Of a stretch of 64,000 nucleotides of DNA, positions 17,283 through 48,878 are shown piece by piece; position 1 is the stretch's first letter; each line of letters opens with the position of its first letter. The notes under the pieces are model-generated. The model did no database searches, was not told the DNA's origin, and saw nothing but the letters and a program-made list of their open reading frames with translations. Source of the DNA: Marsupella aquatica (taxonomy: Eukaryota; Plantae; Marchantiophyta). A program made the translations under genes and the position numbers. The DNA lies in contig OZ316894.1 of assembly GCA_973895155.1 (NCBI GenBank), forward strand, positions 14,399,680 to 14,463,679, given 5' to 3'.

Positions 17283-17558
17283 AAGAAAACATAAGCAGCG
17301 CTCGGCGCTATCTTACACTATGGTCCTAAAAATGCGGTCTATTGAAGAGAATAATCGGAAAGAAAACCAAAATGCTTAAGCCTCGATCGACTCAGTCTCA
17401 AAACTTCCGCAAGAATATGCAGCGCTCAGCGCTATCTTACACTACGGTCCTAAAAATGCAGTCTAATGAAGAGCACAATTGGAAAGAAAACCATAACGCC
17501 TCGGTCGACTCAGTCTCAAAACTTCCGCAAGAACATAAGCAGCGCTCGGCACTATCTT
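17283..17558. repeat. Tandem repeat of about 120-125 bp (about 2.3 copies), each unit carrying an AGCGCTCGGCGCT-type palindrome
   Basis: The unit gcagcgctc.gcgctatcttacacta.ggtcctaaaaatgc...cgactcagtctcaaaacttccgcaagaa is repeated. Palindrome cores start at 17297, 17421 and 17541. Confidence 0.85.
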
Positions 17559-17635
17559 AAAGTTATGACCAAACCGAATGATGTAACATCGTTCACTGTG
17601 AAAAACCATCCAGCCAAAACATATGAAGAGCACCT

Positions 17636-18208
17636 CTAGCTTTCAGAGTTGCAATCGTCGTCCACTCCTGCCGCTTCCCTTTTCCAATTTTTCTTGAATC
17701 CAAGACCACGCAATCGAATGTATCTCTCAGAAGGTCCCCGACGCACTGCCCTCCTACCTTCATTCAGAATATTACTGTCCTCAAAGTCAACTCACCCAAA
17801 CATTTCTTGAACTCTTCTTTTGATTGGGAGTACACCATCGATGGGAACTGCCTGATGAGATGAAAACCTGCTCGCAAACGGGAGCGGAGGAGAATCGACA
17901 ATCCACGGAATGTTCTTCTCTCTAGGACTAATAGCCTCATCATAGGGTAGAGCATGGTTCTGAAAAGTGGAAGTTTCAGTATCTTTGGACTCAATCCTTG
18001 ACTCATAAGAGCTGAAATGACTCTCCTCCGGACAAACTCGAGAAGGAAGGAACGCTGACTCCCACGCAACCAAGTCATTGTTTCTCGCCATGTCCAATAG
18101 GTCCACAAGAAATGTCAACTTCCCCTCTCACCAAACGCGAACAATGTCAAATGAGGTCACTCGTCCCTCAAAGGCCGGGGTATATACAAGCACGTACAGT
18201 CCATGCAT
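17636..18208 (-). pseudogene. Orphan reading frame of about 190 codons broken by two TGA stops, function unknown
   Basis: One frame reads MHGLYVLVYTPAFEGRVTSFDIVRVW*EGKLTFLVDLLDM...QEMFG*VDFEDSN...NSES*. It lies on the same strand and just downstream of ParB-MTase copy A. Confidence 0.35.
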
Positions 18209-19080
18209 GGGTTGGCTCTAGCACACCAACAGACACAAACCAGATGGACGTTGGTCTCTGAAATGTATATCGACGTAGTACTGACTACATACGGTTTGTC
18301 TCATTCTGAGGACCGTTGTAAGACACGACAAAGACACAATGGACAATCACCCCCAATAGAAGGAGGAAATATACCAACAATGAACCTCCATTTGGTAAGT
18401 GCCAGGTGCTGGTAAAAAACACCGATAATACGGCATCAATTTATACGGACCCTCATCAGCGGAACTGAATACATATTTGTACTAGCGCTTGGCGCTGGTA
18501 AAAAAATTCCCCTAAAGTTCCAAAAAATGTCTCACGATTTTGAAGAATCTGATTCTGAATTAGAATTTGTACTCTGTGACTTGTCTATGGACACAACCTC
18601 ATCGTCTACGTACTGACTCCGGGAAAAGTCATCAACATAAGGATTTTTAATGAACTTCCTGTCAACACCCTTTTGTAACCGAAGACCTTTGTTTTCCCAT
18701 CAAAGCGTCCTTGTACTCTCAACTTTCCTTGCGGCTTTCTCCGCATAGGAGGGAAGAACAAATGGTTTTTCCGGCGTTTCTATGTAGTGTCTGGCAACTC
18801 TCCTTTGGAGCTTGAAACGTCTATGAGCATTCCATTTTTGACCTGATGCAATGAATTCCAGCAAGTCAGGCACTTGTTTCAAGAACAACACAAAATTGGC
18901 ATAAATGGACGGGAATGGAGAAAGAAGCTTACAAGTTTATGAACATTACTCGGAAGAGTCATCACTATCGATTTCATTAGGAGATGCATGAGCCTCTTCC
19001 TTTTCCTCCTCTGAGTGCCCCGTAGCTTGTTGCTCTCTACCTTCACTGGACTCATCATCAGAATCAAAATTGAGAACCGA

Positions 19081-20060
19081 TCAAAGCTTATCTCGCTTCT
19101 TTTTGTCGGTAGGAGGAACAGGAGGAGGTAAAATTTGAATCTCTTTGGGAGACAACAAATCCATGAAAACCTTTGAAGTGGTTTCAATAAAGTCTTTCCT
19201 ATGTTCTATCCCGAGTACAAAGCGTCCAGAAAAATCTCCTGCAATGAAAGAGCTACCCGCCCCAACGGTCCAATCCATGAAAATATCACAAGGACGGGTG
19301 ACAAGCTCGATGACAGATTGCAAAACCCCAACAGACAAACAAGCATTTCCAGCAAACTCCATTTGTGGGAATGGATTGGATTTGAGAGAAGAAAGCCCGA
19401 TCAAATTGGTGATCGAGGGGTCTTCACTGATGGAGAGTGGACGGAATTTAGAGTCTTTGGGAATTTTACATTTCCCATTAATTTGGCCAAACATGTCCAG
19501 TCTGAGAGTAAACATCTGCCGAAAAAGCAATCTGAAGTGTCAGTTGGCGAATCCAGGTTACACGATTGATAACTCAAAAGGGGAAAGAGTCAAGAAGAGA
19601 TAATTACCTGACGGTCTGTCTTGGCCGTGTACATGGGAACAGACATCACAACATTTATGCGTACATATACATTGGAATCTTCTCGACAGACAGCAATGAC
19701 TTGAGACATGGGATTGTACTCCCCATTGTGTAGAATTGCAAGGACCCCATTGTCTAATAAAAATGGATCCATGGATTTGAAAAAAGAACTAGCCATTGAG
19801 TGGTCTGGCATGTTCCATTTAGGAACCTTCTTGTCAAGGATTGTCAGTTTGAACCCAATTGGAAGGTAAATGAAGTCTGCGTCGACTCCAAACAATCTTT
19901 CCTTTCCACCCCTCACAACACCCTTCACTTTGTATCCTGACTTTACTAGATCCTTCCCCCACTTTTCCACAATACTAACCCACTCTGGTTTCTCCTCTTT
20001 GTTGAAAGTCAAGTCAAAGAACTCAAATAGGCTTGACTCAACCATACAATGTCGAGACAT
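19081..20060 (-). pseudogene. Beta-class N6/N4 DNA methyltransferase-like domain of copy A (two exons, intron 19607-19516)
   Basis: VLQSVIELVTRPCDIFMDWTVGAGSSFIAGDFSGRFVLGIE matches the N6_N4_Mtase C-terminal pattern LLERLI..ST.PGD.VLDPF.GSGTT..AA...GR.FIGIE. The N-terminal half has ADFIYLPIGF at the motif IV position (degenerate) and FLLDNGVLAILH (an L.P.G-type motif). Confidence 0.7.
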
Positions 20061-20305
20061 TGTACTCTTGAAATTCCCAACTTCACGTTGGAGACCAGTT
20101 GCTGCAACACTCTCCCTTGAAGAAGGTCCTCCTTTGGTAACTCTTTTTCACTTCTTTCTAGTACTTGTGGCGTCGACTGGAACAATTACCTTCCCTTTGT
20201 CTACAGGAGTAATGGGGTCCGATCGAGCTCCTGTGTTTGCTTCAGAAACTTCAAGGGTAGCATCAGCTTTAGTATCTCCTATTCCTGCAGTATTTGACTT
20301 CCTCC

Positions 20306-23300
20306 TGTCACGTCGTCAGCCTTGGCCTTACTCCGGCTTTGGCTTAAATAGGCACATCCTTTGTCAAAATGAGGGTTCGGGCAGGGAGGGAGGCACGGAA
20401 TGCACCCAACTTACATAAAATAGCGCTAAGTGCGCCTATCATCATATACGGACACCTCCTAGGTATGTTTTGTGTTCCGCCACCGGAATGTACCTCAATC
20501 GATAGCAGGATCGACCCTGGCTTAAGGGCTTCTAAGCCTTCGTATTGTCCGCCTTTGATCCGGATTTTGTGGTATGGGTGCTCAACCCGGGCTCGCAACC
20601 ATGTACACGCAAGCTGCACCCCGTGCACTACTTGGGTAGTGCGTTCGGCCAAGCGTTGGCACCTATACACAAGATTCACACACATAGATACGCACAAGCA
20701 TAAAATCTCAATTTATACGAAGGAAATAACGGGAAGGGATTTTACTCCATAAGAGACATACGCGGTAAGGGCGTGCGCCTTCGCTAACAACTCATCGGCG
20801 GCTGCAACTTTGGGTTGTAGTTGCAGAAGCTCAGCCTCTTGAGCCGCAACTTTGTTCTTTAAGTATACGAACTCCACCCGGTACCGCTCTATCCTCTGAA
20901 GGGCCTCTGATTGGGCCCGACCTGCCTTTACTGCGGCAACCAACTCCTGATTGAAGAAATAGGCTACCTTCCGGGTCATGAACTCCCCGGTATCCTGGGC
21001 AATTTGATGAGAGAAATCTCCCAGAAGCCCGTTCAGAAATGTACCCGGTACGAAGAGTTCCGGGTGGTCCAGGTTGTGCCTGTCCGGAGTTGGGCACGAG
21101 CAGACGTCCACACGCGCGGGGGCTGGGGCAGTGACATCCAACCCTGGGGACGTAGTGTTGGAAGGGGTTGGAGTGTCCTCCTACAGCAATGTCCGGTTCT
21201 CCGGAATAGGGTGGGTCTTTGGGAGACCCGGGCTCGAGTAAAGGCCTCCGCTGTACCGACTTCTGTACTTGGACCGGCCTGTTGGATCGCATCTACGGTT
21301 GCAATTACCGACCCATCCGGTACCTCCTCGGTCATGACTATAGCTACTTGTGGAGGTGGGGTGGGTGAAGCCTGCATGTCCGCTGGACTTCGGCCTCGAG
21401 TTGGGGCCATCTCTCCAAGGCCGGGAAAACCCACTTAGCTGGGACCAGCTTTGTAACGTTGACACGGGGAAGGGTTCGTCGATCAAACCGAGCGTACCAC
21501 TCGAGAATGATCTCGATGTGGCTAGCAAAATACGCCTTCCCGCCAATGTATAGCGTCTTTCTTCGCCACTCCATCTCTTCGTGGAATTTCTTAGCGAAGT
21601 ACGATGCCCACTTCCTAGGTCGATAGTTCTCGACCTGGATAACCTGGGCAGCGGAGATCTCCCCTCGGGGTTCCATCATGTGGAGGGCGTACCTTTGGAA
21701 CTCCAGTCGCTCAGCTATCTCGGGAATGAGACAGGTCCTCATCACGAACCCGTTGTCCACTGCTCCCTCTGAGGGAAAACTCAAGGATTGGTACTTGGCT
21801 CCCTTGCCCCCGGGAGCCCGTGATTCAACTCGGTGGTCACCTTCGGGTAACCCAAAGATCATCTTGAGCCGTTCTTCCGTGAGGGACATATTCCTTCCCC
21901 GCAGCCGAGTAAGTTGACGTGCGTCATCATAATTCTTGACGAATTCTGTCATGTCCTCCCCGTAGTACCTGCAAGTGTTCCAGGGGAGAGAGGCGAGGTG
22001 CTCGAATCCCTGAGTCTTCAGGTACACCGCATGTTTGGGATGGAGGATGTTTTTATGCACGTTTTCCCCCATGCGGTGCATTGTCACCTTGGCCGCGGCT
22101 ACCGTGGCTAATGGTAACCCAGATGCAGCGGCGGGTTCCTTCCTCTTCTTCCCCCGTGACTGGCTTGGGGAGGGTGACACCTCCCCATCCTCTCGATCGG
22201 GCATAGGTAGTGCTACCGCCGTTAGTATTGGGCCCGGGGCGGCCACGGTCACCGTGTTGTTTGCTAGAGCCGTTCCTTGGGTCCAAGCATGGGGAGGGGA
22301 CGATGTAGTGTCGGCCCCCTGAGTGTTTGCTCCTCTGGGCCGCCTGAGCAAGGGTGGGGTAGCCTCATCATCGTCGCTAAGGTCCACAACATTGATGACG
22401 GAGCGTACTTGTACTGGCGGGGCGATTGGCGGTGGGGGTTAGCTAGGCTGAGACTAAGACTGAAGCTGAGTCTGCGCTGGTGCGGGTACGGGTATGGGGT
22501 CGACTGGGCCGGCGCCGGCGGGTGCAGGCCTAGTTCCCATGAAGCTCTGCAGGTGCTGGTAGAAGTTCTCCGAAGCAAGTGCAGAAGGCCTTGTCGAACG
22601 GGTAGTGCTAGACTCGCTGTTGATGATAGCCCGAACCTGAGCCCCTGATGTGGTCAAAGTGATGTCACTGCAAGTCAATCGTACCCGGGATATTGAAGAC
22701 CTCGTTCGGAAGCCAAAGCAATGCTTCCCAGAAACTGATATATTTGTCTCCGTTGAAGAAGTACCCAGATACCTCTGCTGGTCGGTAAAGCTCGCTCTGA
22801 GACGGGTAGTCAAAGTTAAGGATATAGTGGTGTCGTCTTGCTAGGTGGATGGCTCTCTCGTACTCGCATTCGATTTCATATCGGTGCGGGTTGGCGTGTT
22901 TCAATGAGTCGGCCAAGTGTCTTCCGGTAGATAGGAACTGCGTCCAGAATCGAATGGCCGAACTGGAGAGGATCATGTGCGACATTCAGAGGAGATAGCA
23001 GTGGCGACTAAGAGAGAACGAGAGAGCTGGGGTCGAAGCTGGCGCGTGGACTGATGGACTGGTGCACTACAAAGGGTCAGCTCCCTTTTTATACCCTAAG
23101 GGCTTGTCGATCACCCGGCGTCTCCTCGTTGCCTATAGGCTGAACCGTTCACGCTTGTAGTGTACCGGCCACTCCGCCGGTCTGAGTCAGCGCGTGTCAG
23201 TGGCCGCTTCCCTAAGTTCATTATACGGACCCGAGGGAGGGGCCCCTCCACGCTCGCAACCTGGGTGGGCGAATGGCGATACGCCGCCAGTCCGAACATG

Positions 23301-23452
23301 AATTCCCCTTATTGACTAATGATTTCCTACTCATAATGGTTACCTAAATACTGTCGTTATGCTAATAATAGTGGCCTAAGATACCCCTAACACACATGCT
23401 AAGTGCGGTCCAGACTGAATTACCGATTACTCACCGTACCGGCGGCGTCACA
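20306..23452 (-). repeat. 3' LTR (about 3.15 kb) of the Gypsy element
   Basis: Starts TGTGACGCC directly after the purine tract and ends ...CGTGACA at the TSD. Segment 22918-23452 matches 29390-29924. Confidence 0.75.
20713..22985 (-). pseudogene. LTR-encoded accessory ORF (plant mobile domain / Athila ORF1-like core plus coiled coil), fragmented
   Basis: ORF pieces 22665-22985, 21344-22387 and 20713-21141. The core GFEHLASLPW...MTEFVKNYD...LRGRNMSLTEERLKMIFGLPEG is homologous to ORFs at 37.5-38.5, 39.2-39.8 and 45.8-46.1 kb. Confidence 0.65.
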
Positions 23453-24788
23453 TAGCTCCCTACTTAACTGTGAAGCATCCTCGCGAACATCACTTTCGGC
23501 GTTGTCGTCTTGATGGTGGTACTTTTTTACACGATCGTAACTGACTCGCGTGGGGAGTAAATCGCCGGCGTACGTTGCAAGCTCCAAAGATCCGTTGGGG
23601 TAGATCTGATTGACTAGGAAGGGCCCTAACCAACGGGTATGAAGCTTCCCTAGAAACTGCATGTACCTACTATCGTATAGAAGGACCAGATCGCCTGTCA
23701 CGACATTGACCTTCCGTAGTCCTTTGTCGTGCTGCTTCTTAGAAGTTGCTTGCTGGTGTACGGCGTGTCGAGATGCTAGTAGTCGTGCCTCTTCTAAGGC
23801 TTCAATCTGATAAGCTTGGTCTGACGAACTTTCAGGTTTGGGCAAGCAATCCCGAATGCTGACCCGTGGAGTGTGTACTTCAAACTCGACGGGCACCAAC
23901 AAATGTTGGCCGAACGAGAAAGTACAGGCTGTGACTCGTAGTAGTTTTGTAAGCTAGATTATACACGTACACCGCTGCTTACAACTTATCATCCCAATCC
24001 GTTTTGTGCGCAGCTACAGTTTTGTTGAGGATCTTCCCAATGATACCATTGGCTCTCTCTGCCATCCCGTTGGCTTTAGGATGATACGGGGTAGTCTTGT
24101 GGTGCTTGACTAGGTAACGCTCCGTAAGCTGGGCTACCGTGTCATTGAGGAAGTGTGTTCCACGGTCGCTTACCAACTCTAAGGGCAGTCCGAACTGGGT
24201 GAAAATCTGTTCATATAAGAACCTGGCGCTGGTTGCGGCATCGTCCTTCACCGTAGCCCGCGCTTTGACCCACTTGGTGGAGTAATCTATAGCTAGTAGG
24301 ATGTACCTGCATCTTCACCTTCGGGTAACGGGAGTGAATGGCCCGATGTAATCAATACCCCACTTTTCAAAAGGTGCTAAGGGAAGCACTGATGTGAGAG
24401 GGTGATGATGAGCTCGTCTCGGGGCCCCAGCCCGTTGACACAGGTCACAGCCCTTGATGAAGCGTTGTACATCCCGATGCAACGTAGGCCACCAATACCC
24501 CGAGTCTAGAATCTTTTGGGCTGTCGTGATAGCCGCGAAATGGCCTCCAGCTTCTTCTTCATGCAAGGCCCGCATCACGATAAGTGTTTCCTTATACTCT
24601 AAGCAGCGTCGTAATTTCCCATTAACTCCTTCCTTATGTAGGTGGCCCTGTATCATGACATAAGGTCCGGCTTTCCTTAAAAACACAGCGGCGGCTTCCT
24701 GATTAATGCCGTCAGGGATGCGGCCCGTTAAGAGGAAGGTGATTATTGAACCGTACCACGTTGGCGTCATCGACCCTACATGGAACAA
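23420..24788 (-). pseudogene. Gypsy integrase (fragmented)
   Basis: HHCC region GHFAAITTAQKILDSGYWWPTLHRDV...CDLCQR, core WGIDYIGP / SDRGTHF / HPKANGMAER, and GPY/F-like WLGPF. Confidence 0.92.
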
Positions 24789-26425
24789 TTCCTCATCCAG
24801 AAAATATCATTAATTGGCTGATCGACTGGTACGCCGTCCAGCCTTGAAAATAAATCGACGTTGAGGTGTACCTTTCCTGGCCGAACCCGAACTTCGTAGT
24901 TAAATTCCTGGAGAAGTAGCACCCACCGGGCTATCCGTCCCGTCACGTCCGCTTTGTTGACCATGTACTTCAGGCTATCATGATCCGTGTGGAATATGAC
25001 CTTGTAGCCGAGTAGATAGTGTCGGAACTTTTTACACAAGTAGATTATTCCCAGAGCTTCTCGATCAGTGGGGGAATAATTCTTTTCGGCTGTGAATAAT
25101 TGACGGCTAGCGAAGTAGATGGGGTGGTCCCATCCGTCCTCATCAAGCTGACTGAGCACGGATCCAATACAGAACCCTGACACATTGACATACACGTGGA
25201 ACTCCTTATTCCAGTCTGGAGTGACCATGATAGGTGCGGTGGTGAGTCGTTTACGAAGTTCTTCGAAAGCAATCCATCTTCGAGGTGTCTCCTCGATCAC
25301 CGCGTCCTTCTTCATCATCTCAGTTAAGGGCAACGCAATTTTAGCAAAGTCTTTAATGAACCGACGGTAATACCCTACACAGCCCAAGAAGGATTGTACC
25401 GCTTTTTGATCCACGGGGAACACCACCGCCATCCAGGCCGCGACCTTCTCTTGATCCACCTCGATACCCCGTTTGGACACACGATGCCCGAGTAACACTC
25501 CCTCCTCTACCCCAAAAAAGCATTTGGCGGGATGTAGTTTGAGGTTAACCTCTCGGCATCGTTGCAACATACATCTTAGGTGTTCGGGGTGCATGGCGAC
25601 GGTTCCAAAGATGGCGAAGTCGTCGATAAATATCTCTAGAAATTCCCGTAGGAAATCATGGAAGATATTCATCATGAGTCGCTGAAACATGGCCGGAGCG
25701 TTACACAGTCCGAACGGCATTCTCTGAAATGCAAAAGTCCCCCATTCTGTAGTGAACGTTGTTTTGAGCTGATCCGAGAGGCGAATCCAGATTTGGTTAT
25801 AACCCGAATACCCGTCAAGGAATGTATAAATTTCATTTCGGGCTACCATATCTAGAACCATATCCATGAATGGTAACGGGTAATGGTCTTTTCGGGTCAC
25901 GTCGTTCAACTTACGATAGTCCTGACAGATCCGGATCTTAGGTTTTCCGTCCATACCTCCCTTTTTTGGTACAATGACGATGGGAGAGACCCAGTCGCTG
26001 GCCATTACCGGGTAGATGATATCTGCGGCGAGGAGATGATCAATTTCCTCCTTCCCTAAGATGGAGTACCTCGGGTTCATGCGATGTTGTCGCTACCGTA
26101 CTGCATGGGCCCCCAAATTCAAATCGATCGTGTGTTCTCCTAACTCGGGGGAGACTCCGGTTAAATCGTGATGGCTCCATGCAAACACATCTTCATATTC
26201 CTTGAGCAAAGCTTGGATAGATTTTTCTGCCTCCCTAGTCAGAGCGTGGCCCAGGTTAAAAGACTTATCCATCCCAATGGTGTACTTCCGGTAGTGCTCC
26301 TTCCTGATGACTTCAACCTGGGTCCGCAAGCTTGGGTCCAGGCTCGCATCGAGTTCAGCTAACCAAACTCCTCCGTACATGGGTGGAACCGGGATTGGTT
26401 TCGGGATTGGAGTCACTTCCACCAA
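24776..26425 (-). pseudogene. Gypsy reverse transcriptase + RNase H
   Basis: WVSPIVIVPKK, RICQDYRKLN, LDGYSGYNQI, MPFGLCNAPAMFQR, FIDDFAIF, FLGCVGYYRRFIKDF, AEKNYSPTDREAL, TDHDSLKY. Confidence 0.95.
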
Positions 26426-26443
26426 TTGTGGGATGGACGGATC

Positions 26444-28093
26444 CTAGGAAACTCGTTTCTTATGTCTTGGTCTCAGGTTTTTGGCATCGGGCGGTTGTTT
26501 GGCCGGTTCGTGGTCACGAGGCTCTGCACTGGTAGAAGCAGCATCGGCTCCCTGCTTAGCTGGAGCCGTGTCCTCTGTATTGATCGGTTGTTTTTGCGTT
26601 TCCTCATCCCGGGCGGTGGAGGTGCTCGGGGTGGACTCAATAGCAGCCTTCGGGTAATTCAGGAGATGTGTTTCCTGGGTTGCCTCAACTCCGAAGACAT
26701 CTTCCTCGGACAAGGACGAGATGAGTTCAATCATATTGAGTTCCTCTTCCTCCGAGGTCTTCGAATCATATTCCTCGGGTCCCTGTGGAGTTTCGCCCTG
26801 GTAATCGTCCATTGCCCATGATACCCGTACTGTGGGTGTCCCGAACCGTAGCTCCTTCTTTCCCCAATCCGTGACTACACGGCCACCGTACAGCCACGGC
26901 CTGCCTAGGAGGACCGGATAAGAGGAGGGCCAAACCGGCCTCATGACTAGGAAGTTGAGATAGAACTCCACCCCTCCCACCAGAGTGAGCACCCGTGTGA
27001 GCGTGCCTAATGGGAGGACCCTTGCCCCATTTGCTAATCTGATAGCTCGGGCCGTGGGTTGATATGTGAGGTGTCCTGACTTGACTGATGTTTCTTCAGT
27101 CATGATGTTGATGCCCGCTCCTCCGTCCACGAGAACCATCTTGATGGTACAATTATTAATTTCAATTGAGATGTCCGGCGCTCCCAGGTCCTCGCATATC
27201 ATGTTGCAATCTGCGATCCCAACACGGGGTAGTCGCCTCTGTCATCGACCCGTAAGCAACTCCCTCAATTGCCGTCGGTACTGTGGATTGTTTTGTAGCA
27301 GTTGTCCTACTGTTGCTGTAACCGGGAAACTCTTCACGTCTTCCTTAATATCATAGTCCTCCTTTTCTTCTTCCTTCGGTTGCTGCTTGACTTCCTCTTG
27401 CTGTTTCTTTACCATTTCTTTGATGCGGGGGAAAAATAGCTTCGGGTCGTCCCTACGGTAGTCATCATCTTTCTCTGGGGGTATGTCTATCGCTGGCTGC
27501 ACCGGAGTAGTATCTTGTTTTTTCCTGTGTTTCTCCTCCTGCTTCTCTTCCTTCCGTTCGGCTCTTATTGACACTCGGTAGCACTCAGCCTTGTCAGATG
27601 GATTAGGGTGCTCCGCCACGTCCACCAGATTTACCCACTCAGTGTTGTCATCTTGCCATTCCACAGCAATCATTTGGACGACTGCATCGCTCGTGGCCGG
27701 TCCACCCTGAGCTGGTCTTGCTCCATTTGTTCGAGCGGCTATTACCAATGGACAATTGGCCGTGGAATGAGCTTCCGTTTTGCAGACTTGACATAGTGGC
27801 ATGCCACGGCCATCCCCCTGGCGTCTTGGTTCTGTGCATTCCCTAGCAAAGTGGCCTGGCTTCTCACAGTTGTAACAAACCGGGGATCGCCAAATCCCTG
27901 GTTTAGGGGGAATGCTAGGATTACTGATAACTTGGAAACTTTGGCCATTGTTTGGGGAGGGGTATGCAGTTCTACTTGCTAAGTTACGCGGACCCACCGT
28001 TGAAATCTGATACACCGAATCAGGAGGGTCTTCAAAGAAATACTCCGTGGACTCCGCTTCAGGTCCCGGGTTGTCGACATCATCTAATTCCAC
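26444..28093 (-). pseudogene. Gypsy zinc knuckles + aspartic protease
   Basis: CCHC knuckles CYNCEKPGHFAREC and CQVCKTEAHSTANC; protease motifs LVDGGAGINIM and LLGRPWL. Confidence 0.9.
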
Positions 28094-28266
28094 CTGGTGA
28101 ACTCGGTTCTTCCATCTTGGGCATTCTTACACGACATGCCCGGATTGGAAGCACTTTGAACACCACGCATGGGCTCGGATCTCAAATGGCTTCTTCTTCT
28201 CCACCGGCTTTTCCGCGAGATGTACTGACAGTGCTTTGAGGCGATCCGTGATTTTGTTAAGCTTGT

Positions 28267-29319
28267 CTACTTCGGCAGCCTTTGGATCGGGTATCGTTCT
28301 TCGAGCACGGGGTTTGATTTTCCCCTCCTTCTTAACCCTCCTTTTCTTCTTCTTGCTCCAGCTCTCGCTCTCCGAATCACTTCCCGATGAGCTGGTGGTG
28401 GAGGACCCGCTGTTCGAAGTTGAATCTGAACTAGATTTTGTCTCCGAACTGGATGAGGTCGAACAATGTTTCTTCTTCTTCTTGCATTTCTTCTTCTTCT
28501 CGTCGCTGATTCGGAGTCACTGTCACTGAAGGTCTCGTACTTTCCCTTCTTGCGGCGTGCCCGTTGGCTTTGTCGGGAGTTATAGGTGGACTCCCGGTAG
28601 GTTTTGGCGCATGCTATGGCTGCTTGCATTGAAATTGGGTTATTCTGGCGCACCCAGAATTGCATATTCGTGGGCAAACCATGGAGGAACCACGTAAGCT
28701 GGAGTGCGTCACCAGGCCTGGGCCGTATCTTGGCAGCAAGTTTCTGAAACTTCTGAATGAACTTTCGCAGGGGCTCTTTTTTTCCCATGCGAAGCTGGCC
28801 GATCTTTAATAAAGAGCGCTGCTCGGATCCAATAGCACAAAATTCTTGTAGCAATGCAGCTTGGAATTGTGCCCATGTAGTACCGGGTGGCAGCGAGTTG
28901 TACCATGGATGAGCTTCTCCCTGCATCACTCCAGGGAGGACAGTTAGCTTAATGGCGTCTTCCCCGTTAGCCTTAGCAGTGGCTTCAAACTCATCCAACC
29001 ATTCATTCGGATCATCCCCATGACGCCTTTTGAAAGGTCGATAATGAAACCGTGATCGTTGCGATATTTGTGGACAAGCTTGGGCAGTGCGAGCCATCGG
29101 CGGGGCAGCTGCCATAGGTACTGGTGGCGGTGGCGGTGGTGCAGCAGGAACTGGAGCAGGACGGGTTGGACCGGACCCCGAGGGTCCTGGTGGTATGTTC
29201 ATTCGCCGAGGTGATTGCAAATCCTCCGATCCTGAAGAGTCTAAGCTTGCTGTGGTTGCACTCTCTCGTTCGCTAGTCAATCTCCTCAAGTAGGCTGCTT
29301 GAGAATGAGTGACGGGCAT
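28267..29319 (-). pseudogene. Gypsy gag (Retrotrans_gag-like), frameshifted near 28500
   Basis: DDPNEWLDEFEATAKANG...GEAHPWY...TWAQFQAALLQEF...KEPLRKFIQKF...WFLHGLP. Confidence 0.88.
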
Positions 29320-29389
29320 TTACTCATATACACATGATGGTTAGTAACTCACACGGGCCTGGTGTATTCTGCCCAGGTGCACCCGCACA

Positions 29390-38965: not shown

Positions 38966-39208
38966 TCCATCCTCTCGGGCACAGGTGGTTCCTTGGATGG
39001 GGCGGTGAGCTCCTCCGTAGTCTGCAATGGGGAGGGAAAGGTTTCTTCAGGTGGTGGAGGGATTGGGGGTGGTTGTACTGGGGTAGCGGACGTTCGACGG
39101 AAGGGGGCGGTGGAATACCAACGGGAGGAGGTGGCGGAGTATTAGGTGGGGCCGCAGGCTCAGGGTTTGCCCAAGGCGCGGTAGTCTGCTCGCTCCTGGT
39201 TGCCTCCT

Positions 39209-40849
39209 CTAGAGCGAGGATGACATTAGTCGGGCTGAGGTAGCCATATTCTTCCCCCTTGCCTCCCGCCGCACTTTGTACCAGGCAAGGATGATGGCAA
39301 TGTGACTTCCCAGGTAGGTTCTTCCCCTGATAGACATACCTCCTTGAGCCCGATTAAGCTCCCCCAAGAACCTGCGGTAAAAGAATTGGGCCCAGTTCCG
39401 CCGTTTGTACTGTTCCACCTGTATGATCATACAGAGGGAGATCTCAGATTGTGGCTCAATCATGTGTAGGGTAGTCCGTATGAAGTTAAGCCGCTCCATA
39501 TAGACTAGGCTGGTGCATGACCCTTGCTTGTACCCGGTGTCTGTCTTACCCTCGGGTTTGAAGTGTCGGGGTGTATACTCCTTATCCCAAATTTGGAGTT
39601 CAACCGACACTGGCCCGGTTGGCAAACAAAAGATTTGTGCCAACCGATGCTCCGTAAGTGATAAGGTCTGTCCTGAAACCTTGGTGGTCGCTGCATCAGT
39701 GTCGAAGTTGGAGATGAACTCATAAACCTCCTTTGGCCCGACTGCGCTAGGTCTCCATAGCAAGTGAGCGAACTGCTCCAATTGATGCTCCTTGAGATAG
39801 TCCGCGTGGTCAGGTTTCTTGATTGTCGTCCAGACTACCTCGGGGACGCGGATTACCTGTAATAAGTTAGGCTGTTGATTATCCGAGGGCCATCGGGTCT
39901 GATTGGTCGATGGGTTGGTCGGGTCAGGCGTAGGGGCGGCGTTGGTTCACGTTGTTGGTTCGGGGGCCGGCGTCGTCCTTGCCCGCTTCCAAGAACGTGT
40001 TCAAGCTGCGGACTAACACGCTCAGAACCCAAGGAACACTCAGTGTTGTTCATGGGACGGACTTGGGACCGGTTTGGTGGTACGCTGGTGGTCATTGGCT
40101 GAGGGGCTGGGGGTGGTGTCGGGGTAGCCATATCCCAGTTGAAGGCGTTGGAGCTTTCCCCAAGGAACGTAAGATTGCGCACCGCTTCCCGTTGTCTGCT
40201 GATGTCTTCTTCACTCTTCTTGGCTGCAATCTGCTGGTCAATGTATCCCGGGATTTTGTCGAACTCCGCTGGAGTCAGCCTCTGGCTACCCCTCAGCCTA
40301 AAAAACTTTGCGGGGACTTCAAGAATCGCCTCTGCTAAACCCCTCCTTGCTGATATATAACTCGTTGATGTAGTCACAACTTGTAGCTGGAATCCCTGGT
40401 GATGGCTATCTTCTCACAGTTAACCTGTGCTACCTTAGCCACCAACTTTGCGTACCTTTGTTTGTAAGCGGCTTTCTCGGGGCAAGAATACCAGTAAGTC
40501 TAGGAGAACTTAGCACCTACCTCGCCAAACAAGGTCCAAAATCCCAAGGCTGTAAGGGACATACTAACCTTGTAGTCTGGTTTGTCGAGTCCACGTCCCC
40601 GCTCGGCAATTTTGCTTGCTGGTGGAGGTCATACTCGCCCTAACTAAATTCTGCCACAATCTGCTCTTATCCCTTGATAATTCCCTCGTAAAAGTTAGCT
40701 CAATTTGAGCAAAAGGCGAGAGGGAATGGCCGCGTCCACAAATTCTAAAAGGTATGAATGAGAAAATGGGCCGTGCCACCATTGACTCAGCTCTTATGGG
40801 GGTGCCAGGGTGAGCTGGAGCGTGAGAAGGCAAGGCCATTTTTAGTCAT
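39209..40849 (-). pseudogene. LTR-encoded PMD-like ORF, fragmented
   Basis: Close homologue of 44674-46143: AEAILEVPAKFF.L.GSQRLT and EFISNFDTDA..TKV.GQ.LSLTEHRL.QIFCLPTG. Confidence 0.7.
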
Positions 40850-43800
40850 CGATAATGGCTCAAAGTTGGGTATCTCGGTCCAAGCGTGATCTCCTAACGG
40901 ATTTTTACTCCGCCGCCGCCACCATACCTTGGTCAATTGTAATAATCCCCTTCCTTAATTCATAATCATTCAGTCAACTAACCTACTCCTAATCTATTCA
41001 TAATGGTAAAGATGGCTATTCGTGCTACTCTACGCTACGGCTACGGTCCTAATGACCGTATAAGTCCTAATCTAGGACCCACGTCCAGTTAAGTGACAGG
41101 TTACCCATGTCATAGTATGGGATATCAATATTCGGGACTCTTTAGTTTTGTTGTATTTTAGTTAGCGTCTGGCACTACTCAAATTGTGCCTAATATTTAT
41201 TGCCTTATGGTGAATTGGAGATTTTTCAATGGACCTTTTTGACAGTGTATGAGGGTCTGACATCCAGACTTATCGGAAAAAATGACAAAAAATCATTTAT
41301 GGCGCCAACGGATTCCATGTCGCCTACATTTCTTGTCTTATACAAATGGCTCTTTTAACATAAAGTTCCCAGGTGCAATTGGTATAAGCTCCACATTCTT
41401 GCAAACTTTTCTTTCTCAACAACTTTCAGCCCCCATATTTGTCTTTGATTGTAATGTCTTGGTCTATCGTTCTATCCCGCTTCGGGACTGGGGATATTGT
41501 CACCATCCCCATCCCTTTGGCAGACACGTACAAGCAAGTAGGGGAGAGATACTTTTGCAGAAGATTTGATTTGAACATGAATGACATTGAGTCCATTGTT
41601 TGAGAGGTTGAATCCATTGACGATATCAAAGATGCTACAACGTTCAATGTTGATGATGGTGAACAATTTTGGCATCTTAACGCTGGGATTTTGTACTCAC
41701 TTTGGGTTAGACCACCTGAAGGACTACCAGGTGTCCGCCAGGTTCCATTTGATGTTGTGGAGATTCTTCTAGTGAAGATGGAGATCACACTCCAAGTCCT
41801 TTGTTGAAGTTGAAAGTCCCGCAACATGTTTTCATTAAAGGTGAGACTTCGGGGAGCTCTAACTAGTTGGAGGTTGTGTATCGGCGAAGTGCAATGGACA
41901 CATTGCCCAAATCCACTGGTCATAGCGAGTTGTCAAGGTTCATATCAACGGGTGATTTCAGACATGAGCAAGTCTCTTGTTTGCCAAACAAGTACAACGG
42001 GAACATTGTCTTTGAATTGCCACCCATTGACAAGATGCTCTCAAAAAGGGTCTAGGCTTAGGGACATGGACCATGCCAAAGATTGCTACATTTGGACACG
42101 CATATTTCCAACCACCGCAAACGTGCAGCCAAAAAAACATTGGCAATTTGGTAAGGTTACCTGTACATGGTTTATTGAATGTCGGAACAAGTCCTGCGAG
42201 TACTTCCAAAGGAAGAAGAGGCAAACGCTAAAGCATGGCAGGGTGCTCCAAAGCTTAGTGGTCAATATGTTGTGGGTTCTTTTATTGAAGAGGGAGGTGT
42301 TGTATGTCATTAATGTCAAGCGATTCCATTTTGGTCAAGTACTGCCCTGCTCGCTTGTTTTATATGTACCCGCAAGTATTACTTGATGCAAAAACATGTA
42401 GTCATATGTCCCGCCTAGCAATTCACATAGGTGAGCATAACCATCCAGGTGAAAAACCTTCTCAAGGAGTGTAGAGAAGATGGCTGAGGATTTGATTAAA
42501 AAAAATCATGAAGCCAGTCCTCTTGCAAAACCAACAGGGATCTTGAATTCTGCTACAACGTTGATAGTGAAAGCTCTTTGCAAACATGTTGACGACATGG
42601 TTGATATCAAAGAAACTGAAATTTGGAAGTCTTTGATGGTACTTTCCACTCCCCAAAAGTTTGCATCGCTTTGTCAGAGCGTAAGGATAGACCAAAAGGG
42701 TCGGGGTGAGTTATATTTTCTCTTGCAAATGCAAAAGAGGATTAACCTTTTGTTTCTCCAAAGGTATTTGCTCCTAGGTAGGGTTGTCAAGACGATAGGC
42801 CTCACATCTTCAAAGTGACCGTGAAGGGTCATAGTTCCGGTGTAGATCTTTTGCGGCTGATGCAACCGGGTGGAAGACTCAAAGGAGCCTGGGTGAGTTT
42901 TGATGTCATGCGTTGTGTGACAACCGATTGGTTTAGTTTTAGCACGCACATCTACGACCATAACTTCCGTGCTCTTTGTACAATTTTCACATGCAAGTTG
43001 AAAGGTGAAGACACCAAGTCTTTTGAAAAGGCTTGGAGAGTTATGATAGAGGTTTGCAAGGAAAATGGATTACAGGATGTTGTCATCCAAGGGTTTATGG
43101 CGGACAATGCACAAGCAGGATGGAATGTTGTCCGCAATGTTTTTTTGGGTGGACACCCAGCCCCGGAGTGGGAGCGCTCTGATGCATTTCACTTTTATCA
43201 ATCTTTTCATCAACATTCCAAGGAAGTCCAAGTATTGGAAGAATGTCAATCAGAACATTGGAGGTTGTGGGAGAAACTAAGAAACACTCCAACGTTTGTG
43301 GTGGCGTATCGGGTGTCCCGAGAGATTGTGGTGTGGTGGCAATCAAGAAACTGTGTACCAGGAAAGCTCTTGATGCTACAAAGCTGGATATCCTGGTGGG
43401 TTGTTCGCTAGCGCCAGTGGGGGAATTTTATTTCAATGGTATGATATATATCTCCTCTCTTGTTTGTCATTGTACATCAACTTTAGACTAGCGCCAGGCG
43501 CTGATTTTATTTTCATGTAATTCACACGTTGAAACAATGATTGCAATACATTGAAGCCCATATGTCAATAAATTGCAAGAGTCAGAGATTCAAATTGTAT
43601 TTGACGTTTGTATAACATAATTGTCATTGACAGCGTTGGGCGCTGGTAATAGAATGTCACTTATTGTTGAATTTGTACTATGGCAGAGCAAAAGCGTAGA
43701 AGAAGGTGCCTTGATTCCCAATTGTACAGGGTCATAATCAAGGCATGCCTCTATGAAAGCATGGGCTACGAAGAAAAAGGTTGGTCTTTTTGAAGATTGC

Positions 43801-44410
43801 AAAGTTGACCAAAACCGTGCTCTGTCGCAAATTGCAGGATATAGTGCATACCAAAAAGGGTTGAACAAAGGAAAGGGGCCAACTATATGGGAATTGGCGT
43901 TCCGTTCTGCCGATCAAGCAGGTTTGCCGAGGTTATTTGAAGATGCGACCAACATGCTTCTTTCCAACGTGGCAAGCTTTGATTTGGAAAGAACTAATCC
44001 CCTTAACGGAGATATAGTGACAAAGTCAATGAAGAGGAAGGGACCTGCAACTAGGATTGTCTTGCCACAAGACTCCCATCGGCATGACACTGTTTTCATA
44101 ACCACACCAAATACTCTAGGCTTGAAAAGGAAAAACCTCAACAAAACTGACTTTGCCTTCATTCCCTCAACTTCTGAAGATCCTGTTACAAGAGTGGTGG
44201 ATCTCTCTGGTCTGGACACATCAGCGGGTGATAGTGATTCACTAGACAATACCCCTCAAACAACTCATGCAACAAGATCCTCTAGACCGCCGCTCAATGC
44301 CCCAGCCGCACTTCAAAATCCTCTTCCACAGACTATTCCACTGGAGAAGGATGTCCCTCTAGGTCAGTGGCAGTTGCGACGGATGTCAAAATATGGAGCA
44401 AGACCCCAGT

Positions 44411-46827
44411 TGTGACACGAGTAACGTGTCACTTAACCGAACCCAGGTCATAGATTAGGTCTTATACGGACGTTAGGACCGTAGCCGTAGCGTAGAATAG
44501 CACATATAGCCGTCCGTTGCCATTATGAATAGATTAGGAGTAGGTTAAGATGACCGAATAATTACGAGTTCAGGAAGAGGATTATTACGCGCGACCACGG
44601 TATGGTGGCTGCAGCGGAGTAAAAATCAGTTAGAAGTCACGCTTGGACCGAGGCGCCGACTTCAGCTCATTCAATGACCAAAATGGCCTGGCCTTCTCAC
44701 GCTCGGGCTCATCTTGGCACCTCCATAAGAGAGGAGCCGATGGCGCTGCGGGCCATTTTCTCATTTCCACCTTTTTGGAATTCGCGGACATTGCCATCCA
44801 CTCGCCTTTCTGATCGAATCAAGTCGACCTTTACAAGGAGATTATCGAGGGATAAGAGCGGAATATGGCAAGATTTAGTCAGGACGAGCGAGACCTCCAC
44901 AAGTAAAGGACCAACCGAGGGGGAACGTGGACTCAACGGACCGGACTACGAGGTTAGTATGACCCTTACAGCCTTGGGATTTTGGACCTTGTTTGGCGAG
45001 GTAGGTGCTAAGTTCTCCGAGACTTATTGGTACTCTTGCCCCGAGAAAGCCGCTTACGAACAAAGATATGCGAAGCTGGTGACCAAGGTAGCACTGGTTA
45101 ATTGCGAAAGGACAGCCATCACCAGGGATTCCAGCTACAACGAGCTGCGAGACTACATCACCGAACTATATCTCAGCGAGGAAGGGCTTAGATCGGTAGC
45201 AGAGGCAATTCTTGAAGTCCCAGCGAAGTTCTTTAAGCTGAAGGGCAGCCAGCGGCTTACTCAAGCGGAGTTCGACAAGATTCCGGGGTACCTAGACCAG
45301 CAGATCGCAGCCAAAAAGCGCCAAGAAGACATCAGCAGACAACGGGAAGCGGCGCATAATCTTACGTTCCTTGGGGAAAGCTCCAACGCCTTCAACTGGG
45401 ATATGGCTACCCCGATACCACCAGTGCCTCAGCCGATGACCATCGGCGTACCGCCAAACCGGTCCCAAGTCCGTCCAGTGATCAACACAGAGTGTTCTTT
45501 AGGTTCCAAGCAAGTTAGTCCGCAACTCGAACAGCGTTCTCGTAAGCAGCCAAGGACGACGATGGCCCCCGAATCAACAACGCAAACCAACGCCGCTCCT
45601 GCACCTGCCCCGGCGAACCCCCCGGCCAACCAGAACCGACGGCCCCCGGATAACCCGAAGTCCAACTTATTACAGATAATCCGTGTCCCCGAAGTAGTCT
45701 GGATCGCGATCAAGAAACTTGAACACGCGGACTATCTCAAGGAGCATCAGTTGGAGTAGTTTGCTCACTTGCTATGGAGGCCGTGCGCCACCGGGCCAAA
45801 GGAAATTTGTGAGTTCATCTCCAATTTTGACACTGACGCATCGGCCACCAAGGTTTTGGGGCAGGCCTTATCACTCACGGAGCATCGGTTAACGCAAATC
45901 TTCTGTCTGCCAACCGGGCCGGTGCCGGTTGAACTCCGAATTTGGGATAAGGAGTATATGCCGTGGCACTTCAAACCCGAGGGTAAGACGGACAACGGAT
46001 ACAAGCAGGGGTCGTGCACCAACTTAATCTGCATGGAGCGTCTTAACTTCATACGTCTTAACTTCATACGGATCATTGAGCCACGATCCGAGATTTCCCT
46101 CTGCACGATCGTGCAGGTGGAACAGTACAAATGGCGGAACTAGGCCCAATTCTTCTACCAAAGATTCTCGGGGGAGCTGAAGCGGGCTCAGGGTGGTATG
46201 GCTATTGGGGGGAAGGCTTAGTTATCTTAGTAGAAGATAGGTGAGGCACGGGGAGTCCCGGCCTGAGCAGGGTCAGAGCGCACCAAGGAGTGAGAGCCAG
46301 AGTCGAGCTTGCTGGGCAAGTGCGAGGCAGGGTCTCGTAGAGACTGGGCATCGACTGCCATTGGGCCTGCTAACCCCCTTTGAAGTCGAGTCAACCATGT
46401 AAACTGATGCTTCGCTGAGTAAATGTAGTCTTTTCCCTCTAATGTTTCCGCAAGTAACTGGTGTTGTGAGTATGCTTTGTCTGGGCAAAGGCACCATTTT
46501 AAGGGACGTACCGGGTGCAGACTAATGGTAGGGATTGCCACCCATTGTATGTCACAAGGTTCTTTCGCGTCGATGGCTTGAAAAGCCCCAAGCCAGGAGT
46601 TAGTCCGAGTCACTAACTAAGGGAGGATTCCAGCGGTGGAAGATAAAAGATACCTATGACTAGTACAAATTGCTTAAGCGTTATACCAGTAAGTATAGCG
46701 GCTTAGCCCGACTTAGGGCTAATCGGAGCCACTACACACCTCCTTGCCCGAACCCTCACCCCTACTGGTGGTCGAGGTCGCACCATGGCACTAAACTGGA
46801 TTTAAGGCCCAGGTTAGGGACGCGACA
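44411..46827 (+). mobile_element. Solo-LTR-like unit with an internal deletion, same family as 32973-41114
   Basis: TGTGACAC...CGCGACA termini; TSD CCAGT at 44406-44410 and 46828-46832. Confidence 0.9.
44674..46143 (+). pseudogene. LTR-encoded PMD-like ORF (361 aa open, then TAG, continuing in frame)
   Basis: ORFs 44674-45759 and 45769-46143 are in one frame and are homologous to the other LTR ORFs. Confidence 0.7.
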
Positions 46828-48878
46828 CCAGTGTAATGGGACTCTCTGTGGGAATTCTGATCGCGATGAGTGTCAAAATTGTATCAAGAAATTTGGATTA
46901 CATTCGTCTGACGGTGTTGTTGGAATTGTCGTGAGGGGCCATCGTCTTTTTAGGGGCAAACCCATATCCAAAATGATTTGGTTCTGCCCAAACAAAGCAT
47001 GTTATAGGAGTCACCCGCATCGTGGGGTTGATCGACTTCCTCCTGTTCCTGATATTTTTCCGGTTCTGAAGGGTACAAGCCTGTCTCCCTCTGAAATTAA
47101 GTTCCTCGAAGGGCAAGGACTTGTGCTAGCCCAAACACCAGGATTGAGTTGATCTGTGCCATCTTTGTTTGATCTCAGGATAAATGTGACCGTGTTCCCC
47201 AAAACAATAAAGTTTTTGGAGCCAAATGTCCGGCTGGGTAGTCGAAACAAGAGGAACTCAAGGCCTCAATCTAATCTTACTATGGATCACACTAAGCGAA
47301 TGGAGTCTACACGAAAAGAAGAGATGAATTTGGATGGGAATGGGATGTTCAGACTGGAAATGATTTTGGAAAGCAATTTCAAATTTGAACCCATGAGAAC
47401 CTTCAATCGCCAAGCACTTACTTTGTCCAAATCTGTATCTTCCCTGCTTGCTCTTGTGAGGACTTCTTCCGGCGGCATTCGCGTGGCAAGTCGTACATGC
47501 CTTGTAAACATCTCTATTGGGTGTACATTAATGTTTTCAAATTTGATGTTGAGGAGTCGACTCTTTGTAGCCAACCAGTTTTGACAGTGGGCAAAGTCAA
47601 GCTTGTCTTGGAGAGGCAGAACGTGAATGGCTTATAATAGAACCCAAAAATTCCGTGTAACTTGTTCTACATAACGGATAGTCACTATTTTGTCTTTAGC
47701 CAACGGATATTTTACTGGTTTGTTCAAAAGATTTTGGTTAGCGTTGGGCACTGCTTCCAGTAGTTGCTACGTTCCTTGCTTTATGATGTGCCTATAAGAG
47801 AGAATCATTAGGACATGTTCCATTTTATATGTATGTCTTTTATCTTTAAAGTCGTGTGTTCAATCATTCTGAATAATACAGTTGGCACCAGGCGCTGTTT
47901 TGTCATTTGTTTGTTGGGATACAGGGTCCATTTAAGTGAACCCATTGTGATTGATGTCATTTGGACACCAGCCTTGACTAGTGCTATTAATGGTGGGTCC
48001 CACCCAAGGGTAACTCTTTAGCCTGGACAATTTGTGAGTTATTATTGGGTATGGTCCCAATTATGTGTTATATGATCTTCTACAATAAATTGTCGTGTCA
48101 AAGGACCCTTGAAGTACTATTGAGCTCGCATGGCACTAAAAGATTTGTTAGTTTTGAAGCTAATTCCTTAAGACAAACTCATGTGATTGGCGTAGTTTTT
48201 CAGTATTGAAGGCTTCCAACCATAGGTATGTTCTGAGTGTATATAATTTATATGTAGTGGGAGAGACTTTTTCTCATTTGTATCAAGGGGTTATGGTTTA
48301 TGCTAAACTGGTAACAGGGAAAGTTTTACTGGTAATAGGTAAATTTTGGCTGTTAACAATAAAGGGTTTCCTGGTAACAGGTTATCTGTTTTCTGTTTTC
48401 TGTCATGGTTGCCATACACCTCAATTCTTACCGAATGGTGACAATGCTAAGCTCATCCGGACCACCTCTTCAAGATCTTTCCAACGCCATATTATACGTG
48501 AGTTTTCATTATGATTTGACTCAGCAATGTCAAATAAAAAATTGTTGTCGGGAAATTTTTATGTTTTAAATAAAATGGTTAGTGGGAGCAGTTTTACCTC
48601 AATCTTTTTGTCTTTTGATTTGTCTTTTTTTTACATTCTTTTTTACGGCATGGCGTCCTAGTTTTTACAGCAAAGTTGCCACAAACACAAATGCAGAAGT
48701 TCATTTTATCCAAAAACAAGTCTCTTCCTATTTGCAGCGTGCATGATGATGTGGCGTGCTGTGGAGCCAGGAATTTTGGAAAGGACCCCTAATGGGGGTC
48801 CGTAATAAGAGCATATCAACTACTATAATATCTAAATACTGCCAAAAGTGTTGGGTAGATTGTTTACAAAGTGGGTAG

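Follow-up and report, generated by a model that had tools for sequence, protein, structure and literature searches.

Accessory genes that combine ParB with a methyltransferase are being described from the transposons of brown, red and green algae. Plavaka elements of Bostrychia moritziana encode PAG3, which has a ParB-like N terminus and a 2OG-oxygenase, and PAG2, which combines a PF01555 methylase with SET; tandem inverted-repeat arrays lie beside PAG3, and the authors propose binding to the own element (bioRxiv 10.1101/2025.02.11.637652). In the Ectocarpus element Sola1-1_Ec32, a 1104-aa ParB plus DNA-methyltransferase protein is encoded opposite the transposase (PMC12477816). A similar distribution of sites is known from VANDAL21, in which VANC21 binds motifs in introns and in intergenic and terminal non-coding DNA, often in tandem repeats; motif repeat number differs between copies, related families carry different words, and binding and loss of methylation by VANC were demonstrated experimentally (PMC5735166). 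In this work, we analyzed a 64-kb stretch of the Marsupella aquatica assembly (contig OZ316894.1, positions 14,399,680 to 14,463,679; hereafter the window) that contains a decayed transposon, here named element A, with many copies of a 21-bp palindrome. The palindromes are real, family-private words of this two-gene DNA transposon and probably constitute a functional cis-element of the transposon family. We tentatively propose that they are putative docking sites for an element-encoded dimer, for which a ParB-fold, methyltransferase-like accessory protein is the most probable candidate.

The window is eukaryotic and plant-like, with spliced genes, nested retroelements and an open reading frame (ORF) of the BPC/GAGA-binding type. 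Self-comparison revealed that 17.1-48.0 kb is one decayed DNA transposon broken by later insertions, with its own DNA (about 17100-20150, 29938-32970, 41113-44410 and 46828-48000) amounting to ~10.5 kb in total. Element A is a decayed two-gene transposon with the ParB-like gene on the minus and the transposase gene on the plus strand, and both genes are dead in this copy. In contigs of four public runs, the family was very abundant, with an exon depth of tens to hundreds of times that of single-copy DNA, while introns and spacers were near single- to few-copy at 85% likeness. At 17004-17120, repeat depth drops to approximately the single-copy level. Three different searches for terminal inverted repeats gave none above chance, and terminal duplications were not found either; for lack of terminal inverted repeats, the ends of the element are undefined.

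A preliminary description of this DNA had reported the palindrome as scattered through non-coding DNA of element A, and motif counts in the window placed its frequency well above chance. The full 21-mer, TACYAGCGCCNGGCGCTRGTA, gave six matches at up to three mismatches (0.01 expected), a number attained by 0 of 100 shuffles. Its 13-mer core, AGCGCCNGGCGCT, gave ten matches at up to one mismatch (0.02 expected) and 17 at up to two (0.84 expected), with a maximum of four in 100 shuffles. Fifteen of these 17 lie in host segments of element A, one in intron 1 of a further copy of the ParB-like gene (copy C) and one in a nested long terminal repeat (LTR) retrotransposon. We also derived a position weight matrix (PWM) from nine of the palindrome sites, which is therefore circular for those nine. 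At a threshold of at least 10 bits it returned 19 sites (expectation 0.5 per simulated window), of which 17 belong to A host segments, one to copy C (63582) and one to the nested LTR retrotransposon (24214, core at 24218), the last being at chance level. The sites at 32604 and 47736 were additions of this matrix beyond the core matches. A matrix from the three best copies alone was much noisier and, at a cut-off of 10 bits, yielded 17 sites where 3.5 were expected. With the cut-off lowered to 8 bits, 12 of its 24 non-seed matches fell inside the A host segments (16.5% of the window; binomial p 1.5e-4).

All 16 places listed in the preliminary description were recovered, 47736/47740 (three core mismatches) by the PWM scan only, and two sites (32604 and 32666) came in addition to that list. 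The copies it had named as the three best lie at the positions it gave (18480-18500, 32812-32832 and 32950-32970), with one, no and one mismatch, respectively. Its view that the motif is a true dyad restricted to non-coding DNA of one element was likewise supported. The palindrome is built of ten bases, one centre base and ten bases, and the centre base of the A sites is unconstrained. Across the 19 sites, C>T or G>A changes account for 24 of the 28 core mismatches, which suggests that the ancestral A-type sites were nearer perfect; site decay dominated by C-to-T changes is what would be expected for methylated cytosines in methylated DNA.

Element A has 17 sites in total, two weaker ones included (Table 1), none of which falls in an exon block as drawn by hand, and approximately, from open reading frames and homology. 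All 17 are confined to the ~3.0 kb of non-coding DNA in the ~10.55-kb host element (P ~5e-10 under uniform placement), where they occur in introns of both genes, in the divergent 5' spacer and beyond both 3' ends. Five of them (32604, 32666, 32812, 32950 and 41160) share the divergent spacer, which is ~1 kb long and contiguous once the nested element is removed. The placement in introns of both genes and in spacers had been noted before and agrees with the site positions. Since the same palindrome surrounds both genes, in their introns, their spacer and both 3' flanks, the ParB-like gene and the transposase belong to one element, as had been suggested. The accompanying claim that the motif is missing from the AAA gene and from nested elements held for the AAA gene region (1-15000, no A-type site in motif scans) and for the nested elements in general; it failed for the one chance-level match at 24214.

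Site flanks are unrelated to each other outside an A/T-rich fringe, according to a flank comparison made partly by eye. We also considered whether the palindromes are insertions of a tiny element or parts of a longer repeat. There were neither direct-repeat duplications nor common flanks, and the sites are therefore neither small-element insertions nor copies of a longer repeat. The 124-bp tandem array past the 3' end of the ParB-like gene (17288-17559) varies in unit number, with contigs of two runs joining 17411 to 17529 and thus missing one unit. Contig depth further showed that the low-depth stretch 18057-18524 sits between high-depth exon blocks of the ParB-like gene. As a separate observation, a nested TG..CA element was inserted exactly at a palindrome edge, with TAGTA at 32966-32970 (the end of site 32950-32970) and at 41113-41117.

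Table 1. Palindromes, genes and inserted elements of the window, in coordinates of the window
Feature	Position	Strand	Remarks
A-type palindrome	17293-17313		Unit 1 of 124-bp array past ParB-like 3' end; core 1 mismatch; PWM 18.5 bits
A-type palindrome	17417-17437		Unit 2 of 124-bp array; core 2 mismatches; PWM 11.8 bits
A-type palindrome	17537-17557		Unit 3 of 124-bp array; core 2 mismatches; PWM 14.8 bits
ParB-fold, methyltransferase-like accessory gene	17600-32347	-	Decayed pseudogene; start, end and exons below 20150 approximate
A-type palindrome, decayed	18394-18414		Both CG changed to TG; low-copy gap between ParB-like exon blocks
A-type palindrome, one of three best	18480-18500		1 mismatch to 21-mer; low-copy gap of ParB-like gene
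Retroelement-like DNA, limits uncertain	about 20150-22917		From self-comparison
Nested Ty3-type LTR retrotransposon	22918-29937	-	550-bp LTRs, 93% alike; gag, protease, reverse transcriptase and RNase H domains
A-type palindrome	29995-30015		Large internal gap of ParB-like gene, also host to nested retroelements
A-type palindrome	30082-30102		Large internal gap of ParB-like gene; 87 bp from site 29995
A-type palindrome	31511-31531		Inside ParB-like intron 1
A-type palindrome, decayed	32604-32624		Divergent spacer; PWM 18.2 bits; C>T or G>A at 2 of 3 core mismatches
A-type palindrome	32666-32686		Divergent spacer; 21-mer and core match
A-type palindrome	32812-32832		Divergent spacer; sole copy with 0 mismatches to 21-mer
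A-type palindrome	32950-32970		Divergent spacer; 1 mismatch to 21-mer; terminal TAGTA became target-site duplication of nested element
Nested TG..CA element	32971-41112		5-bp TAGTA duplication; no A-type palindrome
A-type palindrome, decayed	41160-41180		Divergent spacer, far side of nested insertion
Transposase gene	41451-47640	+	Decayed pseudogene; interrupted by nested element at about 44411-46827
A-type palindrome	43486-43506		Transposase intron; core exact
A-type palindrome	43628-43648		Transposase intron, 142 bp past site 43486
Nested TG..CA element, second copy	about 44411-46827		Likely CCAGT 5-bp duplication; interrupts transposase gene
A-type palindrome, decayed	47736-47756		Past transposase 3' end; PWM 11.2 bits; 3 core mismatches, all C>T or G>A
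A-type palindrome, decayed	47880-47900		Past transposase 3' end
Palindrome region of sister element B	53863-62388		52 copies of own palindrome TCTCGGAGAGNCTCTCCGAGA
A-type palindrome	63582-63602		Intron 1 of A-like gene copy C; 21-mer and core match

The ParB-like gene of element A contains an exon with the motif FDGNHR (FDGNHR exon; 31584-32035, minus strand), and tblastx detected two paralogues of it in the window, one at 59.8 kb on the minus strand (in element B) and one at 63.3 kb on the plus strand (copy C). Element B spans about 53.0-62.6 kb, and its paralogous ParB-like gene is 43-50% identical in this exon. B has a palindrome of its own, which shows the same 10+1+10 build and occurs in 52 copies at up to three mismatches (0 expected). 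All 52 lie within the B region and none in A, and conversely no A-type site of at least 10 bits was found in B by the PWM scan. Within the ParB-like gene of B, five B-type sites occupy intron 1 (59370-59568), and an internal gap carries an array of about 22 units of 34 bp (56149-56958); further sites lie upstream (61387-62388) and downstream (53863-54161) of this gene. Arrays with units of 34, 41/43 and 107 bp are found around and inside the gene (53737-62452). Furthermore, B harbors a Ulp1-protease ORF (54528-55073, minus strand; Pfam E 8e-16), and of its transposase only a 3' stub is present (53029-53247, minus strand).

Copy C (62997-63960) shows 66% nucleotide identity to A. The homologous intron 1 of the ParB-like gene offers a three-way comparison, with one A-type site in A, one A-type site in C and five B-type sites in B. 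The sites of A and C are at different offsets, and the rest of their introns do not align. Just upstream of copy C, we also observed an 80-bp tandem repeat (62593-62834, 2.7 units) with an imperfect dyad-like stretch, ACGCTC..GGGCGA, that has no A-type PWM score; it could be a decayed or different type of site.

A fourth element was available from metagenome contigs, among which a contig of 2078 bp (L001) was the sole transposase relative found; it is 66% identical to the transposase over residues 318-668. Its homologous intron (1079-1438) contains three copies of TATTGCTAGCGCC followed directly by GGCGCTAGCAATA, at 1105-1130, 1189-1214 and 1279-1304, and no other copy was present in the contig outside this intron. 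The half-site, CTAGCGCC, is that of A, but the central base is missing. The window contains no copy of the even-spaced form, and L001 none of the odd form. At 1172-1231 of L001, the perfect inverted repeat around the middle palindrome has arms of 29+29 nt and a 2-nt centre and is much longer than the shared 26-bp word. The palindrome word is thus kept across relatives, private to its lineage and changeable in sequence and spacing. The palindrome of B, the intron 1 sites of A, B and C and the half-site of L001 together argue for functional retention.

We next consider the two genes that could encode a reader of these sites. The ParB-like gene of A has ~1000 codons with in-frame stops, and nested retroelement DNA occupies about 20150 to 29937; tblastn with protein P0001 also supports this gene. 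Its intron 1 (31463-31583, GT..AG, minus strand) is backed by an annotated liverwort homologue (P0046) spliced exactly there and by low depth at 31468-31569. A profile search with the FDGNHR exon yielded 43 homologues, none with a Pfam domain and three of them from the liverwort Calypogeia fissa; sequence and profile searches of the PDB with this exon were empty. For the 154-aa FDGNHR exon of copy C, an AlphaFold2 model calculated with a 46-sequence alignment reached a predicted local distance difference test score (pLDDT) of 91.5 and a predicted template modelling score (pTM) of 0.85, while a run with four sequences only (pLDDT 38) was discarded. The top 40 ranks in Foldseek were all ParB, KorB, Noc, sulfiredoxin, SbnI or serine kinase (best E 8.6e-3, probability 1.0). 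VIA-align 2 superimposed 99 residues on residues 42-140 of Caulobacter ParB (7bm8_A) with a Z of 8.4 and a root-mean-square deviation of 2.9 Å, and all 33 matches listed belong to the ParB/Srx superfamily. These model comparisons support a ParB/Srx N-terminal nucleotide-binding fold for the FDGNHR exon, and at fold level all three tools bear out the label "ParB" that the gene had been given. F101, G106, N107, R109 and W113 are invariant in the 46 sequences, and M, D105 and H108 are nearly so ((M)F..DGNHR...W motif); we read the DGNHR motif as the counterpart of the ParB/Srx phosphate-binding loop (GxxR).

The transposase gene carries a TGG to TAG change within the conserved WWVVRWRQWG, so that A reads WWVVR-stop-RQWG. 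Using tblastn, the core of its first long exon (41451-43438) was 56-62% identical to four 660-742-aa proteins from public assemblies (P0002-P0005), and no Pfam family was matched in any of these four full-length relatives. The intron 43439-43729 follows the WWVVR.RQWG exon end, beyond which the open reading frames of the four relatives run on into the intron. The tail of one of them (P0005; ..IASARR, then stop) is what the palindrome would encode in one frame, which is only a hint. A CxC..CxH tail is present at 47389-47637; Pfam SWIM matched it at only E 1.6, and the Cys/His patterns were recognized by eye. MULE transposase families gave no Pfam match in the ORFs of the window, and the transposase family is unclassified. 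No relative of the ParB-like protein or the transposase was found in viral contigs, and a PHROGs search was empty.

In the mechanism that we tentatively favor, intact copies would supply the ParB-like accessory protein, which would recognize the palindromes in all copies of its own family and in no other family. Once bound, it might influence chromatin or transcription, for example as an anti-silencing factor comparable to VANC on VANDAL21, and a mode of action along these lines has also been proposed for the ParB-like proteins of algal elements. The methyltransferase-like part may serve as a second DNA-contacting or modifying module. A more specific version would be self-recognition of the ParB-parS kind, in which a pseudo-methyltransferase dimer loads on the palindromes, spreads and shields the element from silencing, while sister families avoid cross-talk via the half-site (A versus B) or the spacing (A versus L001); in this full form we consider it unlikely.

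Several observations weigh against docking of the ParB-like protein. In bacterial ParB, the N-terminal domain binds cytidine triphosphate (CTP) and a separate helix-turn-helix reads parS. The domain modelled here is of the nucleotide-binding type and not a DNA reader, and no reader domain was identified, with the model covering the N-terminal domain only. A VIA-align 2 Z of ~8 is moderate support according to the tool's own note, as this range can reflect a common arrangement. Likewise, a Pfam scan of the 46 FDGNHR members gave no ParB family at significance and a single DndB match at E 0.066. The evidence for the methyltransferase-like part consists of a PF01555 match (E 0.021) on ORF 19081-19539 (minus strand), which spans positions 163-219 of the 221-position profile and, with 15.2 bits, stays under the cut-off of 26.7 bits. 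In the motif I region of this part, A has ..DWTVGAGSS.. and the B copy a degenerate version. No catalytic (D/S)PP(Y/F) motif was seen by eye in the candidate ORF 19590-20147 (minus strand), the placement of which is uncertain, and by this judgement by eye the catalytic motif seems to be replaced. Since ORF 19590-20147 has neither a Pfam match nor a tblastx match to B, its place in the ParB-like gene is itself uncertain. In addition, the comparisons cover four elements only (A, B, C and L001), and the copy studied is a pseudogene and therefore silent on present activity. The sites in the transposase intron and near both element ends suit a transposase as reader equally well. Finally, the dyad spacings of A and L001 differ by one base, a difference that fits poorly with a rigid dimer but would not matter to a hairpin or cruciform.

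The transposase is accordingly the first other reader to be weighed. En/Spm TnpA regulates the genes of its element at subterminal repeats, and such regulation has been proposed for Mutator-type transposases too. A dimer of the Cys/His-rich N-terminal region would pair the element ends for cutting through subterminal arrays and regulate its own genes through internal copies, a possibility that we regard as a serious competitor, if a rather unlikely one. It accords with the sites past both 3' ends near the expected element ends (17293-17557 and 47736-47900), with the fall in depth near the outer sites described above, and with the two A sites and three L001 sites inside the transposase's own intron. 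By eye, the relatives also have a conserved Cys/His-rich N-terminal region. A further preprint reports that Mutator transposase activates cognate copies in a sequence-specific manner and that Spm TnpA is transposase-derived (bioRxiv 10.64898/2026.08.24.746577). Against this, B keeps its 52 palindromes around the ParB-like gene with nothing but a 3' stub of the transposase, the majority of the A sites are internal (promoter spacer and introns) and not terminal, and the element ends to be paired are undefined in the absence of terminal inverted repeats. Pfam and PDB sequence searches of the N-terminal region were empty, and the GCM-like character that the preliminary description had attributed to it found no support there.

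It is improbable, in our view, that the palindromes act via structure, as a cruciform or single-strand DNA hairpin or as an RNA stem-loop in the unspliced transcripts of both genes, read by host or element factors. The half-site, which would form the stem, is shared by A and L001, but the centre, with one base in A and none in L001, is not; the centre base of the A sites is unconstrained, one L001 copy extends to the perfect 29+29-nt palindrome, and a palindrome yields an identical hairpin in transcripts of either strand. However, many of the sites, given their location in the spacer that separates the gene starts, are perhaps untranscribed, ten-base arms are short for cruciform extrusion, and the build of exactly 10+1+10 in both A and B suggests a fixed geometry. 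We know of no process of this kind that uses family-private stems.

Capture of a host factor, such as a host transcription factor at an enhancer or promoter, has a similarly low probability. In its favor, the ~1-kb spacer that separates the divergent gene starts holds a cluster of five sites, and the B-type palindrome includes GAGAG/CTCTC, a sequence of the type recognized by the plant-specific BPC/GAGA-binding family, with a BPC-like ORF at 50075-50557. This link is a resemblance only, and the occurrence of GAGAG/CTCTC in the B palindrome near this ORF may be a coincidence. Moreover, the sites are also found in introns and 3' flanks, and two related families in one genome carry unrelated palindromes, which fits private readers and not a shared host factor.

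We also give little weight to the view that the palindromes are functionless, a short word that local tandem duplication and gene conversion have spread and that coding sequence cannot tolerate: several sites do lie in tandem repeats (the 124-bp array and the B arrays) whose unit number differs between copies, and the word has TAG in two of three frames on both strands and would thus be excluded from exons, but most A sites lack mutual flanking similarity, the introns of A and C have diverged past alignment and yet each retains one site, L001 retains the half-site at 66% protein identity, and the independent family B has a palindrome of the same build.

Other features of the window were noted alongside. 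The two nested TG..CA elements (2.4 kb) are inverted copies of one another, and the first is split by a 5.7-kb element (33588-39323) with ~380-bp inverted ends (33925-34309 versus 38585-38965, 83% alike) and ORFs of 762 and 347 aa that have no significant Pfam match and weak coiled-coil-like matches only. The BPC/GAGA-binding-type ORF (50075-50557, minus strand; Pfam E 1e-33) lies between 144-bp direct repeats that are 99% alike (48878-49021 and 51963-52106). To the left of element A, a separate and extremely abundant repeat (15951-16886), with a contig depth of up to thousands of times single copy, contains a tandemly duplicated 312-bp unit (98% alike). It is bordered by single-copy DNA on its left (up to 15950), many contigs diverge at ~16617 and 16876-16921, and it may be a miniature element or satellite adjoining element A.

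The locus provides concrete candidate target sites, namely two unrelated 21-bp palindromes in two sister families within one 64-kb window and a third relative that has the half-site of A but spaces it differently. This makes the idea of self-binding directly testable and enables an analysis of protein-site co-variation. If the accessory protein turned out to act in a sequence-specific manner on chromatin or against silencing, VANC would have a second counterpart that evolved independently, and the protein could serve as a programmable DNA-targeting module. A literature search on ParB with liverworts, transposons, palindromes or introns found nothing relevant within its coverage, outside of which lie the supplements of the Bostrychia preprint that possibly hold repeat sequences.

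Compared with known systems, element A resembles En/Spm in having many private copies of a short motif near both ends and in the promoter region. TnpA of En/Spm binds many private 12-bp motifs near the ends and the promoter, some as inverted pairs, and controls transcription and transposition. Unlike the A sites, these motifs are subterminal and do not run through introns, and En/Spm has no ParB-like or methyltransferase-like gene. The N-terminal domain fold is shared with bacterial ParB-parS, Noc-NBS and KorB, and parS, NBS and the KorB operators of plasmid RK2 are palindromes of similar size that occur in several copies, partly in promoter regions. The protein studied here differs from this family in that sequence searches detected no membership and in that it is encoded by a gene with introns in a eukaryotic host. 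No helix-turn-helix reader was identified, with the N-terminal domain being the only part modelled, and the motif is DGNHR instead of the CTP motif of ParB, which is arginine-rich. A ParA partner was not seen in general Pfam scans of the window ORFs, which included no ParA-directed search.

VANC21/VANDAL21 and the algal elements are likewise among the closest known systems. With VANDAL21, element A shares the layout of sites, and only this: a family-private short word in introns, intergenic and terminal DNA that is amplified in tandem. The VANC motif, YAGTATTAY, is a 9-bp asymmetric word in one orientation, whereas a 21-bp palindrome is found here, and VANC proteins carry DUF1985 and DUF287 in place of a ParB/Srx-type domain; neither DUF was detected by Pfam in any ORF scanned. 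As in the algal systems, a ParB-like accessory gene resides within a eukaryotic cut-and-paste transposon. As in Sola1-1_Ec32 of Ectocarpus, it lies on the strand opposite the transposase and is putatively joined to a methyltransferase-like part, and as in Bostrychia, inverted-repeat arrays accompany the ParB-like gene (17 sites including the 124-bp array in A and 52 sites in B). The best Foldseek match, 7bnr, is the same PDB entry as the HHpred match that the Bostrychia authors reported for PAG3. Unlike in the algae, the host is plant-like, the transposase belongs to a different, unclassified family, and the methyltransferase-like part, likened to the algal ones by description and not by sequence, looks catalytically altered by eye. 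The A palindromes also differ from the Bostrychia arrays in their wider spread, which takes in both flanks, the shared spacer and introns of the two genes and is not limited to the surroundings of the ParB-like gene. In our judgement, element A extends the recently recognized kind of ParB-accessory transposon to a plant-like genome, with unusually clear candidate sites.

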